Positions 17,704 to 24,371 are shown, counted from the first letter of the stretch. The stretch is 64,000 bases of DNA from Candidatus Bathyarchaeum sp. (GCA_026014495.1 JAOZIF010000136.1:3886-67885); one strand, 5' to 3'. Notes: generated by a model not told the origin, from the sequence alone. A program made the numbers and translations.

Positions 17704-18522
17704 ATGAAGACTCAGGATGTTCGTGTTCTTGTTATGCGGGTTGGTGGAACAAACTGTGACGCCGAAACCCAACGAGCCTTCACTGAATTGGGCGCACAGG
17801 CACAGGTGCTTCATTTCAACGAAGTAATAAAAAATCACAGCATTCTAGACTATAACGCGCTTGTGTTTCCGGGCGGATTCTCGTACGGCGACTACGTTAG
17901 GGCTGGAGCAATCTGGGCAACAGGAACCCTAACTAAACTACGTAAAGACCTCAAAGAGTTCGTTGAACAAGAACGACCAATTCTGGGCATCTGCAACGGC
18001 TTCCAAGTATTAGTCGAAGCAGGGCTGCTACCTGCCTTTAATGGAATAAGCGAATACCCAAAAGCAACTTTGGCAACTAACATTCCAATTGGTTACCGCT
18101 GCAAATGGGTTTACCTTAAGCACGAGAACTCTGGAAACTGCATATTCACCAAAAACATACCCAAAAACAAGGTCATGCATATACCCGTAGCTCACGGCGA
18201 GGGACGTTTCTTGTTTGCAAAAGAAAACGAAAAACGTTACCTGCAAAAACTCTACGACAACGACCAACTAGTCTTTAGATACTGCACAAAAGACGGTGAC
18301 TACCCAAACGGAGAATTTCCAGTCAACCCCAACGGAGCATTCCACGACATAGCAGGCATCTGCAACCCACAGGGAACAGTTTTTGGCTTAATGCCACACC
18401 CAGAAAGAGCCTTTTACGGCTGGCAGTTGCCTGACTGGGCAAAAACCGAGCAAGCGCCAACGTTTGGAGACGGAAAACTGGTCTTCGAATCCATGATTGA
18501 TTATTTGAAGAAACGGTTCTAG
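17704..18522 (+). CDS. purQ: Phosphoribosylformylglycinamidine synthase I (glutaminase subunit)
   Basis: 272 aa. GFSYGDY, the catalytic GICNGFQ and MPHPER motifs are present. Confidence 0.9.
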   Translation: MKTQDVRVLVMRVGGTNCDAETQRAFTELGAQAQVLHFNEVIKNHSILDYNALVFPGGFSYGDYVRAGAIWATGTLTKLRKDLKEFVEQERPILGICNGFQVLVEAGLLPAFNGISEYPKATLATNIPIGYRCKWVYLKHENSGNCIFTKNIPKNKVMHIPVAHGEGRFLFAKENEKRYLQKLYDNDQLVFRYCTKDGDYPNGEFPVNPNGAFHDIAGICNPQGTVFGLMPHPERAFYGWQLPDWAKTEQAPTFGDGKLVFESMIDYLKKRF

Positions 18523-19424
18523 ATGGCTTTCAGGTCAGCTAATCTGGGTAGCCCTGTTCTGGCGCCAATCTTTGAGACACAGCGGGACGCAACAAAGTTT
18601 CCCAGCTTTCCACAATCAAACAAGTCCATTCCTTTGGCTAACCCGTAAATGAATCCTGCATCAAAAGCGTCTCCTGCACCTGTTGTGTCCACAACATCAA
18701 CCTTGTATGCTTCAATTGTGTGACTCTCTTTTCCGTCAGTAACATAGCAGCCCCACTTGCCACGTTTAACAGCAACCAACTTTGCGCCCAAATCCATGAA
18801 CGTCAACGCCCCTTCCTTGTAATCTTGTCCTGTAAGCAACTTAACTTCCAGTTCGTTAGGAAGAACAACAAAGCTTCGTTTTATTATCGGCTTTAGCTCA
18901 TCTAAACCCTTTTTTGCATATATTGCTCCGGGGTCAAAACAGACTTTCACGTTCTGAAGCCTAGTTATGAGCTGCTTTTGGGCATCAAAGGGCTTTTGTG
19001 CAACAAACGACGACAAATGCAAAAACTTTGCGCCAGAAAAATACTCCAAATCAACTTCGTCAAAGTCTACCTGATTGTTGACTCCAGCATCAACGTAGAG
19101 TGCCCGATCGCCGTTCTGGTCGATGTATCCCATGACCTTGCCGCTTCTGCCCATTTTTGTAACTGTTATTCCGTTGACGTCAACGCCCTCTTCTCTCAGT
19201 TCGTCTAAGAGGAATTTTCCTTCCATGTCAGAGGCAACCTTTCCAACAAACCCTGTCTTGAGTCCGAGCCTAGCCAGACCCACGATTGTGTTTGCTGCTG
19301 AACCTCCGCCAGAAATCTTAAGGTCAGTGACAAAACCTTCCTCTTCCCTTTTGGCTATCATGTTAACCTTGAAGAGCTTGTCCAAGTTGAGGGCACCAAA
19401 ACCTACGGCATCAAAATCCATCAA
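18519..19424 (-). CDS. PfkB-family carbohydrate/nucleoside kinase
   Basis: 301 aa. GGGSAANT and DTTGAGDAF are the ribokinase-family signatures. The gene overlaps the upstream Ftr-like gene by 4 nt. Confidence 0.8.
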   Translation of the reverse strand: MMDFDAVGFGALNLDKLFKVNMIAKREEEGFVTDLKISGGGSAANTIVGLARLGLKTGFVGKVASDMEGKFLLDELREEGVDVNGITVTKMGRSGKVMGYIDQNGDRALYVDAGVNNQVDFDEVDLEYFSGAKFLHLSSFVAQKPFDAQKQLITRLQNVKVCFDPGAIYAKKGLDELKPIIKRSFVVLPNELEVKLLTGQDYKEGALTFMDLGAKLVAVKRGKWGCYVTDGKESHTIEAYKVDVVDTTGAGDAFDAGFIYGLAKGMDLFDCGKLGNFVASRCVSKIGARTGLPRLADLKAI

Positions 19425-20338
19425 AACAGCCCCCGCAAACCTATCTTGTGTTTACCAAGTTTTCCGCCATAATTTCCTGCAGAAACACGGACAACGCCAT
19501 CAACAGCGCTTGCAGTTTGGATGCCCACCTTCATTGCTTGTTTAACTGCTTTCATTGATGTGCCATTGATTACAATTTCAGGAATATACTTTACGCCCAA
19601 CGGAACCTTAGAGCTTCTTCCCAACTTAGTCTTTAGGCTATGACAGTACGGATGGTTCGTGGTAGGGCCAATCAACGGAAACCGTGTTTCAGGCTTTGAA
19701 CCCGCAGAGCAAACATCAAACGGAGTTACCACACCCTCAACTTGGTGTATGGCATCTAGCGCCTTTTTTCCAGCTTCCATAACTGCCCGTTTGGTTTTGC
19801 ACATAAACCAGAAATTGGCGCCCATAACTCCCCTTGCGTAACCCAGCTCGTTTTCTATCAAAAAATTAGAGACCATCAAAGGAACAACAATCAACTCTCT
19901 TCCGTAACGCTCTTCTGTCCACTCGTAGCCATCTCCACAGTGACCAACCCGCTCCATCATCCCAATCTTGCCCTCAGACTTAGGAAGCGCATCAAAAACA
20001 GCAGTGAACGGCTTCACCAAAATGTCTTGCCGTAGCCTAAACGACAACTCTGCCTCAAACTTTTTCAGTGAACTTTCTAGGGGCTTGTTTTCGTCGATGC
20101 CGCCCCAAAACTGCAAAATTACGCCTTCTCGTTTGTCTGGCGTTTCTTGTTTGTTTAGGTATTTTTCGATGCCGCCTTCTGTTCTGCCGATTACTATTGC
20201 AGGCGTGGCTGTTGCCTGTTGTGCAGCTTTACATAAAACTTCAATATGGCCTGCGGTGACTATGACTCTGGAATATAATCCGTCGAAAGCTTCCGCGTAG
20301 GTATCTTCGATTTCGGCTTTCATAATGTCCCCCTTCAT
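19421..20338 (-). CDS. ftr: Formylmethanofuran:tetrahydromethanopterin formyltransferase family protein (Ftr or Ftr paralog)
   Basis: 305 aa. EIEDTYAEAF, ETPD, GDGY, EIVINGTS and VSAGNYGGKLGKHKIGLRGLF are collinear with M. kandleri Ftr as I recall it. Confidence 0.85.
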   Translation of the reverse strand: MKGDIMKAEIEDTYAEAFDGLYSRVIVTAGHIEVLCKAAQQATATPAIVIGRTEGGIEKYLNKQETPDKREGVILQFWGGIDENKPLESSLKKFEAELSFRLRQDILVKPFTAVFDALPKSEGKIGMMERVGHCGDGYEWTEERYGRELIVVPLMVSNFLIENELGYARGVMGANFWFMCKTKRAVMEAGKKALDAIHQVEGVVTPFDVCSAGSKPETRFPLIGPTTNHPYCHSLKTKLGRSSKVPLGVKYIPEIVINGTSMKAVKQAMKVGIQTASAVDGVVRVSAGNYGGKLGKHKIGLRGLF

Positions 20339-22857: not shown

Positions 22858-22883
22858 TAAGGCTCACCATAACATATGATTGG

Positions 22884-24371
22884 TTATTTTACGGAAGATT
22901 CGTATATTCTTCCTTTTTCGCTGTAACCGTTCTCGAATCTTTCTTTCATTTCGTCAGCCAACTTTTGGGCTAACGGGGTTGGATACTTGCCTGTAATACA
23001 ACCCAGACACAGGTTTTGTTTGTCTAAGCCTGTTGCTTTAACTAGGCCATCAACGGACTGGTAGTTCACGGCGTCTGCGCCCACGATTTCGGCGATTTCT
23101 TCTGCGTCGTGTTGTGAGCCTATTAGTTCACGGTAGGTTGCCATGTCTACGCCGTAGAAGCAGGGTCCGATGATTCTGGGGAATGTGATGAAGAGGTATA
23201 CTTTTTTTGCGCCCATTTTGCGTAGTTTGGTGACTACGACTTTGGTTGTGTCGCCTCTGACTATGCTGTCGTCTACTACTGCGACGTTTTTTCCTGCGAG
23301 TTTGTGGTCTACGATGTTGATTTTTCGGTCTATTGTGTTGTATCTTTGGTCTGAGAGTAGAATAAAGGCTCGTTCTGCGACGTATCTGTGGCGTCTTGAG
23401 GCTCTTTCCCATCTTATGCCTGTTAATTCGTGGTATCCGTAGGCTGCGTCGTTTCCTGTTTCGGGCATGGACATTATAATGTCCACTTTGCTTGTGGTTT
23501 CAGGGTATTCCCATGCAAAGTTTCTGCCAAACTCTTCTCTAACTTCATACACGTATCTGTTTCCTAGTCTTGAGTCTGGTCGGGCAAAGTATGCGAATTC
23601 GAATGCGCATAGTGCGTGTCTTTCTCCAGGGCATAGTTGTTTTCTTTCGAAGCCGTCTTTTTTGGCGACTACAAGTTCGCCTGGGTTTACTTCAAAGTTG
23701 AAGTCAAAACTGTTTATGTCAAGGCCCACGGTTTCTGATGATACGGCGCAGGTTGTTCCGTTTTTGCTGCAGCCGCAGCATAGGGGCCTTATTCCTTGTG
23801 GGTCTCTGAAGGCAAAGAGTTCTCCTTTTTCTGTCATTCCAGCGACGGAGAAGGCGCCTTCGATTTCTTTCATGCACCGTTTTACTGAGGAGGCTAGGTC
23901 GCCGTCTTTTGTTTGTCTTAGGAGTTTTCTGGAGATTAGTTCTGCGTCGTAGTTGAATCGAAAGTTTGGGGTTTCTTCTTGTATTTCTTTTATTATGTCA
24001 GGCGTGTTGACGACGTTGCCGTTGAAGGCGATTGCTATTTGTTTTTCTCCTCGTTTTTCCATGATTGGTTGGGTGCTTTTTACTAGTGACTCGTAGTCTG
24101 TTCCGCCAGATGTTGAGTATCTGACGTGTCCCAATCCTACAGATCCAGGAAGTTCTGTTAGCCATTTTTGGATTTCTTCCTTTTTTACTTTGGGAACAAG
24201 GTCCAAGCCTTTTTGGCTGTGGAATGTTCCGTCGTATGTTAAGAATCCGTGGGATTGGTGGCCGCGGTGGTTTTGGGATCGCAGTCCCCAGTATATGTAG
24301 GGGAAGACTGGTTTGTTTGTGAAGTCTTGTGCTGCGAAAACCCCGCATGCCTCTTTTAACTGTTCGAGCAT
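22884..24371 (-). CDS. purF: Amidophosphoribosyltransferase
   Basis: 495 aa. N-terminal nucleophile context EACGVFAA, the PRTase loop VAVVDDSIVRGDT and C-terminal Cys ligands are present. Confidence 0.9.
   Translation of the reverse strand: MLEQLKEACGVFAAQDFTNKPVFPYIYWGLRSQNHRGHQSHGFLTYDGTFHSQKGLDLVPKVKKEEIQKWLTELPGSVGLGHVRYSTSGGTDYESLVKSTQPIMEKRGEKQIAIAFNGNVVNTPDIIKEIQEETPNFRFNYDAELISRKLLRQTKDGDLASSVKRCMKEIEGAFSVAGMTEKGELFAFRDPQGIRPLCCGCSKNGTTCAVSSETVGLDINSFDFNFEVNPGELVVAKKDGFERKQLCPGERHALCAFEFAYFARPDSRLGNRYVYEVREEFGRNFAWEYPETTSKVDIIMSMPETGNDAAYGYHELTGIRWERASRRHRYVAERAFILLSDQRYNTIDRKINIVDHKLAGKNVAVVDDSIVRGDTTKVVVTKLRKMGAKKVYLFITFPRIIGPCFYGVDMATYRELIGSQHDAEEIAEIVGADAVNYQSVDGLVKATGLDKQNLCLGCITGKYPTPLAQKLADEMKERFENGYSEKGRIYESSVK

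Follow-up and report, generated by a model that had tools for sequence, protein, structure and literature searches.

The formyltransferase Ftr (EC 2.3.1.101) moves a formyl group reversibly between the primary amine of methanofuran and N5 of tetrahydromethanopterin (H4MPT) by way of a Glu-stabilized tetrahedral intermediate (PMC6926001). The catalytic, protonated Glu (Glu245 in Methanopyrus kandleri, Glu252 in FhcD) is the oxyanion stabilizer, and FhcD is itself an Ftr homologue that acts in a formate-producing complex (PMC6926001). Our subject is an Ftr paralog, Ftr2, encoded in a 64,000-nucleotide (nt) stretch of Candidatus Bathyarchaeum sp. (called the window throughout), where it lies in one run of genes with purF and purD. 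From comparative genomics, it is probably a methanofuran/H4MPT-dependent glycinamide ribonucleotide (GAR) formyltransferase, the missing enzyme of the third step of purine synthesis. The Ftr family is already known; the proposed activity is new.

That the archaeal purine pathway lacks a known GAR formyltransferase in Methanobacteriales, Archaeoglobi, Methanopyrus, and ANME-1 (anaerobic methanotrophic archaea, group 1) has been recognized since 2011 or earlier, and the gap extends to model methanogens that are proven purine prototrophs. Brown et al. (2011, PMC3261824) found purN and purT absent from two Archaeoglobi, four Methanobacteriales, and M. kandleri, with pathways otherwise complete, and concluded that an unknown step-3 enzyme exists. 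Chadwick et al. (2022, PMC9012536) reported ANME-1 as likewise lacking both genes and described an uncharacterized Ftr2 clade from ANME-1, ANME-2a/b, Archaeoglobales, M. kandleri, and Methanothermobacter, leaving the purine gap and the clade unconnected in separate sections. Taken together, the groups listed in this literature without PurN and PurT are the groups listed with Ftr2, namely Methanobacteriales, Archaeoglobi, Methanopyrus, and ANME-1. In Methanothermobacter, what had been called a second Ftr and a ribokinase are EhaS and EhaT; they were taken to be subunits of Eha, and a formyltransferase or kinase role for the two was judged very unlikely (Kaster et al. 2011, PMC3087415). The Ftr2/EhaS paralog has thus been an orphan for as long as the step-3 gap has been acknowledged, and a full-text literature search, which did not cover subscription journals, returned no paper linking Ftr2 or EhaS to GAR formylation.

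The purF-purD-HAD-Ftr2-PfkB unit and its genome

A first-pass annotation of the window had described five packed minus-strand genes, purF-purD-HAD-Ftr-PfkB (HAD, haloacid dehalogenase), convergent with purM-purS-purL-purQ. Both statements hold: the open reading frames (ORFs) lie exactly where they had been placed, with gaps of at most 26 nt, and family matches agree with the assignments.

22884-24371, minus strand: purF, amidophosphoribosyltransferase, step 1, first gene of the unit (TIGR01134 328 bits, cut-off 350; GATase_6/7)
21448-22857, minus strand: purD, GAR synthetase, step 2, divergent subtype (GARS_N/A/C; TIGR00877 247 bits, cut-off 288)
20342-21448, minus strand: EhaR-like HAD-superfamily protein, 368 aa (weak IIB/IB matches plus motifs)
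19421-20338, minus strand: Ftr2, the EhaS-type Ftr paralog, 305 aa (PF01913 146 bits, PF02741 185 bits)
18519-19424, minus strand: PfkB/ribokinase-family kinase, 301 aa, last gene of the unit (PF00294 177 bits)
13597-18522, plus strand: purM, purS, purL, and purQ, steps 4 and 5 (TIGR00878 266, TIGR00302 70, TIGR01736 684, and NF002252 312 bits)
24372-24585: AT-rich divergent spacer of 214 bp between purF and an archaeal S-adenosylmethionine (SAM) synthetase gene, presumed from its sequence to be the promoter region

From purF to the PfkB gene, the first junction is a gap of 26 nt, the second an overlap of 1 nt, the third a gap of 3 nt, and the fourth an overlap of 4 nt; the PfkB and purQ genes converge and share 4 nt. 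The nucleophile Cys of PurF is N-terminal after an 8-residue propeptide and falls within the motif EACGVFA. The first-pass annotation also stated that a similar trio closes the eha hydrogenase operon of Methanothermobacter, and this holds: EhaS was annotated as an Ftr and EhaT as a ribokinase (PMC3087415), and the ESM Atlas neighbors nearest to the HAD protein carry the automatic cluster name EhaR. EhaR-EhaS-EhaT, the last three eha genes, match the window trio in kind (HAD protein, Ftr paralog, ribokinase-like PfkB protein; EhaR by automatic names, EhaS and EhaT by the literature). Unlike them, the window trio is not placed at the 3′ end of an eha operon; it has purF-purD upstream, and no hydrogenase genes were seen among its scanned neighbors.

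The window lies on contig C175 of a Bathyarchaeia metagenome-assembled genome (MAG) of 2.19 Mb (196 contigs; completeness 93%, contamination 2.3%), and the closest relatives of the window proteins are labeled Candidatus Bathyarchaeum or Bathyarchaeota. Neither PurN (PF00551) nor PurT was found in the 64,000 nt, as the first-pass annotation had claimed, and neither turned up in the whole 93%-complete genome, where it had proposed to look for a canonical copy: PF00551 (Formyl_trans_N, PurN-type) has zero matches genome-wide, and the lone weak PurT match (28 bits) was rejected as an MfnD-like ATP-grasp protein adjoining an MfnF-like gene. FolD was searched for in the same genome and not found. 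The genome does encode purF, purD, purL, purS, purQ, and purM, along with FwdA (split across two contig ends), Mch, and methanofuran biosynthesis genes (MfnD/F-like). It also has two tandem genes for PurP (FAICAR synthetase-like; 365 and 367 aa; contig C69:25930-27395) and a PurH-like fragment that covers the first 62 positions of the AICARFT_IMPCHas model and has one in-frame TGA. A fragment of formate-tetrahydrofolate (H4F) ligase (632 bits), alone on a 1.9-kb contig (C125:8-1108), is a contaminant or else a stand-alone folate enzyme. Among the purine steps searched, which did not include PurC, PurE, and PurB, a recognizable step-3 enzyme is the one lacking.

There are two Ftr genes in this genome, Ftr2 in the window and a canonical Ftr1 on contig C59, so the window gene is not its sole Ftr. 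Ftr1 scores 391 bits on TIGR03119, above the equivalog cut-off of 292.6, whereas Ftr2 scores 231 bits, below that cut-off, and passes only the looser subfamily model. Ftr2 is full-length with both Ftr lobes, at 35% identity to Ftr1 and 36 to 38% to the solved Ftrs. It matches Ftr models only, with no match to PF00551 or to TIGR01142/NF006766, and is hence no member of the PurN or PurT families. The phylogeny that had been suggested (maximum likelihood, homologs drawn from 1.84 billion cluster representatives) places the window copy in a separate paralog clade of 28 rows with 96% support by the Shimodaira-Hasegawa-like approximate likelihood ratio test; the Ftr1 clade, which includes the Ftr1 of the same genome, numbers 32 rows at 99% support. 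The Ftr2-clade members that carry a name belong to Bathyarchaeia, Hydrothermarchaeota, Altiarchaeota, ANME-1/Syntropharchaeia, a MAG labeled Methanocellales, and Ca. Pyrohabitans. One Ftr1-clade representative is housed in an mtd-ftr-fwdDBAC cluster, and Ftr1 is also present in every Ftr2-carrying genome looked at.

The AlphaFold2 model of Ftr2 (mean predicted local distance difference test [pLDDT] 92.4) superposes on 1FTR, 1M5S, and 1M5H with template modeling (TM) scores of 0.87 to 0.89. Glu254 of Ftr2, in the motif PEIVING, aligns with the catalytic Glu of the solved Ftrs; it is invariant in the alignment of 28 Ftr2 sequences, and among the 32 Ftr1 sequences its conservation is 85% or higher. 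Kept in both clades are Glu254, R24, D68, R70, R101, K215, and T227; specific to Ftr2 are C134, an IGP motif at 223-225 (G224-P225), W78 in an insert of about 9 residues, and G51-R52. The retained fold and catalytic Glu support a prediction that Ftr2 is catalytically competent. Ftr2 thus resembles the enzymes of EC 2.3.1.101 (1FTR, 2FHJ, 1M5H, 1M5S) in its two Pfam domains, fold, catalytic Glu, and several Arg, Asp, and Lys residues, and differs from them in its separate clade, sub-equivalog score, clade-specific residues, and genomic company, which is purF-purD, HAD, and PfkB instead of mtd and fwd.

The slot after purD and the distribution of Ftr2, PurN, and PurT

A search for related loci returned 80 species loci, all from Bathyarchaeia. 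The order purF-purD-HAD-Ftr2-PfkB recurs in nearly all of them and the convergent purM-S-L-Q layout in most; because of this recurrence, the arrangement is not a matter of chance. Other Bathyarchaeia families have different genes at the same place. The order is purQ-purL-purF-purF′-purD-PurT in family f16 (genome G016), purD-PurN-FolD in family f27 (G049), and purF-purD-divergent PurN-like-HAD-PfkB-FolD in families f7 and f20 (G034 and G028), where the divergent PurN-like protein scores 50 to 76 bits on TIGR00639 and its module is split between two places in G010 and G002. Four different formyl-transfer solutions, then, fill the same operon position after purD. No other single argument for Ftr2 doing the job of PurN or PurT is as strong as this shared slot.

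Two of these loci carry a tandem purF and second purF-like gene (L105 in G016, 6365-9192; L108 in G049, 4689-7467), which recall the PurF/PurF′ pairs described by Brown et al. in Crenarchaeota. On one Bathyarchaeota contig (L086, 5839-16728), purF-purD-HAD-Ftr2-PfkB occurs twice, in inverted copies. Most genes of either copy are broken, purD and purF of the second being whole, and the cause may be misassembly or a duplication in decay. In another lineage (L100, 3175-6575, and L099), a radical-SAM gene precedes an Ftr2-type gene, and purB (adenylosuccinate lyase) diverges from the two, a second and different association with a purine gene.

The partition among genomes was scored in an evenly drawn sample of 81 Bathyarchaeia genomes, at least 80% complete, for Ftr2, PF00551, PurT, PurD, and PurP. 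Scores of the Ftr2 query are bimodal, with orthologues at 53% identity and 279 bits or more and Ftr1 at 43% and 208 bits or less. Ftr2 is present in 29 of the 81 (G058 contributes a piece of 132 aa, 64% identical), and in none of these 29 is there a PF00551 or PurT-type protein; a 175-bit "PurT" in the Ftr2-positive genome G001 was rejected as PurK. PurD has a match in 67 genomes. Forty are PurD-positive and Ftr2-negative, and they divide into 28 with PF00551, 10 with a PurT-type protein, 1 (G050) with a PurT fragment at a contig end, and 1 with nothing. The 12 genomes without Ftr2, PurN-type, and PurT-type proteins are all without PurD as well, and no genome among the 81 has two of the three. 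The partition of Ftr2, PurN, and PurT in Bathyarchaeia is almost perfect; family f10 uses all three, with Ftr2 in two genera, PurT in four, and PurN in one. PurT-type scores reach 472 bits on NF006766 in G016 and are about 258 bits in f10, well over the PurK score there. The PurT of family f16 (L105, 3466-4869, in G016; G068:C12) is 467 aa long, and its model match is split around an insert of about 40 residues.

The PurT counts bear on an indirect role for Ftr2, in which it would pass formyl groups to methanofuran in the manner of FhcD, the formate freed in this way going to PurP and to an unrecognized PurT-like ligase. FhcD (bacterial formyltransferase/hydrolase complex, 6S6Y) is indeed an Ftr homologue with the same Glu and a task outside methanogenesis, within a complex that yields formate (PMC6926001); the PurP of Ftr2 genomes requires formate, as do the purines of Methanothermobacter (PMC3087415). 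A formate supplier should, however, accompany PurT, yet PurT is found in 0 of 29 Ftr2 genomes and Ftr2 in 0 of 10 PurT genomes, PurP occurring alongside both. Moreover, FhcD lies on the Ftr1 side, is less similar to Ftr2 (98 bits), and works within FhcABCD, and no FhcA/B/C-like partners are near Ftr2; nor was any candidate formate-dependent GAR ligase found, the only extra ATP-grasp match being the MfnD-like one. We consider an indirect role of this kind very unlikely.

For a wider view, a census took one genome per genus in 36,145 genera and grouped matches by identity band, with the 20-39% band taken as the Ftr1/FhcD type. High-likeness Ftr2 is found in 126 genera of Bathyarchaeia, 24 of 28 of Methanobacteria, 18 of 22 of Syntropharchaeia, 12 of Lokiarchaeia, 15 of 31 of Altiarchaeia, and 15 of 21 of Hydrothermarchaeia. 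An EhaR-like HAD gene lies within 5 kb of the match in 66 of 75 cases in the band of 60% and above, in 21 of 75 at 40-59%, in fewer than 3 of 150 at 20-39%, and at fewer than 3 random places; for purD within 6 kb, the corresponding figures are 54 of 75, 12 of 75, fewer than 3 of 150, and fewer than 3. Ftr2 stands alone in an ANME-1 MAG, a Hydrothermarchaeota MAG, and a 1.9-Mb Hydrothermarchaeota contig. The operon linkage to pur genes is thus mainly a feature of Bathyarchaeia. Conserved linkage of the trio with purine genes, whose complete lack the first-pass annotation would have counted against its idea, holds across some 80 Bathyarchaeia species loci and fails beyond that class.

A second phylum, Hydrothermarchaeota, was scored by gene content in 26 individual genomes with a completeness of 85% or more. 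All 26 have PurD and 23 have Ftr2-type proteins, the other 3 giving partial or fragmentary matches; PF00551 has matches in 2 of 26, both weak, and PurT in 0 of 26. The EhaR-like HAD protein is present in 24 of 26. At 2 of the 3 Hydrothermarchaeota HAD loci examined, PfkB is directly downstream of the HAD gene, and Ftr2 and purD are elsewhere. Apart from the 2 weak PF00551 matches, then, Ftr2 never occurs with PurN or PurT in the 81 plus 26 genomes scored. With PurN and PurT it shares the position after purD and an all-or-none relation to the purine pathway, while its sequence and fold are unrelated to theirs.

Another explanation is that a PurP paralog does step 3 and Ftr2 is a spare one-carbon (C1) isoenzyme, or that PurN or PurT was simply missed in an incomplete MAG. 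The genome does have two tandem purP-like genes, Brown et al. describe PurP-like clusters of unknown function (PMC3261824), and the assembly is 93% complete in 196 contigs. Incompleteness was rejected as the cause, given 0 of 29 in Bathyarchaeia and the Hydrothermarchaeota counts. As for PurP, roughly every second Ftr2 genome has just one PurP match, and tandem pairs also occur in the PurT genomes G005, G016, and G068 and the PurN genome G060. As PurT and PurN relatives have such pairs too, the role of the second copy is unrelated to step 3. A spare isoenzyme, in turn, would neither track the presence of PurD nor occupy the purD slot. We hold this explanation to be very unlikely.

The proposed reaction and the accessory genes

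The suggestion in the first-pass annotation that the Ftr paralog replaces PurN/PurT nonorthologously gains support, at the level of comparative genomics, from the exclusivity, the shared slot, and the second phylum. We infer the acceptor, donor, and reaction from features observed directly (gene order, clade separation, fold, catalytic residue, phyletic exclusivity, and slot equivalence). Ftr2 would carry out a folate-independent step 3, from GAR to formylglycinamide ribonucleotide (FGAR), by ordinary Ftr chemistry: an amine would attack a carrier-bound formyl group, the conserved protonated Glu stabilizing the oxyanion, with the primary amine of GAR standing in for one of the two natural Ftr partners. 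Since that amine closely resembles the one on methanofuran, the simplest model has Ftr run in its reverse direction with GAR seated where methanofuran normally binds, N5-formyl-H4MPT + GAR giving H4MPT + FGAR; formyl-methanofuran would be the alternative donor. From textbook free energies, either transfer to GAR can be estimated to lie near equilibrium, and the ATP-dependent PurL step would pull it forward. Ftr1 would serve the C1 pathway and PurP, with formate and ATP, the second formylation. The presumed donor of Ftr2 is thus methanofuran- or H4MPT-bound formyl, where PurN uses 10-formyl-H4F and PurT formyl phosphate. Both methanofuran and H4MPT are absent from Escherichia coli.

Two older puzzles might be eased. 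Brown et al. called the labeling data inconsistent, in that C8 of the purine derives from C2 of acetate in Methanosphaera and not in the CO2-reducing Methanobrevibacter (PMC3261824). An H4MPT-linked C1 pool as donor would reconcile these data, and in Methanosphaera the route could run via C3 of serine and methylene-H4MPT. The other puzzle concerns the eha operon. Eha is an anaplerotic supplier of reduced ferredoxin for the synthesis of formyl-methanofuran, and if Ftr2 withdraws formyl groups for biosynthesis, its cotranscription with Eha in Methanobacteria would make sense. The present genomes add Bathyarchaeia and Hydrothermarchaeota to the archaea with a step-3 gap. Should the proposal prove true, step 3 would have a third class of enzyme unrelated to the other two, purines would draw C1 units directly from methanofuran or H4MPT, contrary to the current view, metabolic models of methanogens and uncultured archaea would need correction, and the odd last genes of the eha operon would have a rationale.

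Several points weigh against Ftr2 as a GAR formyltransferase. The case is one of comparative genomics, and the genomes compared are related, so that the counts overstate the number of independent events. One genome, G041, has PurD and none of Ftr2, PurN-type, or PurT-type proteins. Ftr2 outside Bathyarchaeia is not beside pur genes, and ANME-2a/b are reported with both Ftr2 and PurN (PMC9012536), so exclusivity is not universal. Brown et al. state that formyl-H4MPT is not regarded as a formyl donor for purines (PMC3261824). EhaS and EhaT are cotranscribed with the eha hydrogenase in Methanothermobacter (PMC3087415). Finally, the HAD-PfkB pair also accompanies a PurN-like enzyme, so it is not specific to Ftr2, and the pair leaves room for a different pathway.

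Such a pathway could be one in which the trio makes or recycles another formylated or phosphoribosyl compound, a cofactor intermediate or something of Eha-associated function, with the proximity of purF-purD reflecting shared precursors (phosphoribosyl pyrophosphate, ribose phosphates). Textbook step 3 has no place for a kinase and a phosphatase, the HAD-PfkB pair is conserved without pur neighbors in Hydrothermarchaeota and at one further locus (L095), one Ftr2-type gene (L096) lies near methanofuran genes, and the hydrogenase cotranscription just mentioned fits as well. This explanation leaves unexplained the mutual exclusion of Ftr2 with PurN and PurT in all 29 plus 38 genomes, the joint absence of Ftr2 and PurD, and the PurN-like gene beside the same HAD-PfkB pair, and it keeps a hole at step 3 in each Ftr2 carrier. 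We regard it as quite unlikely, and GAR formylation by Ftr2 as the better account.

The two remaining proteins of the trio are well conserved in their own right. In the HAD protein, the motifs D16-x-E18, S115-T116-S117, K220, and G242-D-S-I-T-D247 are invariant in a 25-sequence alignment (A3), and DCEGP, STS, K220, and GDSITD are conserved over 68 orthologues. All of motifs I to IV of HAD-superfamily phosphatases are present, motif I being D-x-E instead of D-x-D. Its homologue in the Protein Data Bank is 1Y8A (AF1437, function unknown; E 1e-27), and the closest folds to its AlphaFold2 model (pLDDT 92.7) are 1Y8A and then phosphoserine phosphatases. Going by motifs and model, the HAD protein is probably a phosphatase. 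A housekeeping phosphoserine phosphatase was rejected, as TIGR00338 has no match here and the true SerB (264 bits) is on contig C82. In the ESM Atlas, EhaR-like HAD proteins also appear in clusters dominated by bacteria (Thermodesulfobacteriota, Spirochaetota). The PfkB protein stays below equivalog level for ribokinase: the best NCBIfam models are ribokinase (TIGR02152, 160 bits against a cut-off of 300) and ribose-1-phosphate kinases (130 to 143 bits), every specific kinase model being far under its cut-off. A complex prediction for Ftr2, PfkB, and HAD scored 0.00 with controls not run, and is evidence neither way.

Across these genomes, HAD and PfkB genes accompany Ftr2 and the divergent PurN-like genes, and not canonical PurN or PurT. 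The two thus look like a conserved accessory pair of putative noncanonical GAR formyltransferases. The PurD that adjoins the HAD gene in other genomes is of the same divergent subtype as in the window, at 220 to 270 bits on TIGR00877, and the PurD of most PurN and PurT genomes is of the canonical subtype, at 300 to 490 bits; both score classes are found in Hydrothermarchaeota, where G079 has one of each. A divergent PurD beside the HAD gene hints, on sequence scores, that the module evolves, and perhaps moves, as one unit.

One elaboration would give the accessory pair work to do: a riboside-level bypass of step 3, which strikes us as possible though unlikely. The HAD phosphatase would strip the 5′-phosphate from GAR; Ftr2, or in some lineages the divergent PurN-like enzyme, would formylate the neutral glycinamide riboside from methanofuran- or H4MPT-bound formyl; and the ribokinase-family PfkB would rephosphorylate the product to FGAR. 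One ATP would then drive a near-isoenergetic transfer, at a cost equal to that of PurT or formate-H4F ligase, by a logic like that of the synthesis of flavin mononucleotide from riboflavin. A bypass would explain why HAD and PfkB occur only with noncanonical formyltransferases, and, if true, it would couple the diversion of formyl groups out of the methanogenic cycle to the anaplerotic Eha hydrogenase in Methanobacteria.

Other genes of the window

Elsewhere in the window, a protein with a TackOD1 domain (Thaumarchaeal output domain 1) is encoded at 4665-5639, and a cluster resembling those for type IV pili or archaella, with one T2SSE ATPase and two T2SSF membrane proteins, at 6450-9787. Upstream of this cluster are genes for an aIF5B-like GTPase, adenylate kinase, myo-inositol-1-phosphate synthase, and a DUF1638 protein. 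Just past the SAM synthetase gene, an ORF of 1057 aa occupies 26349-29522 on the minus strand.

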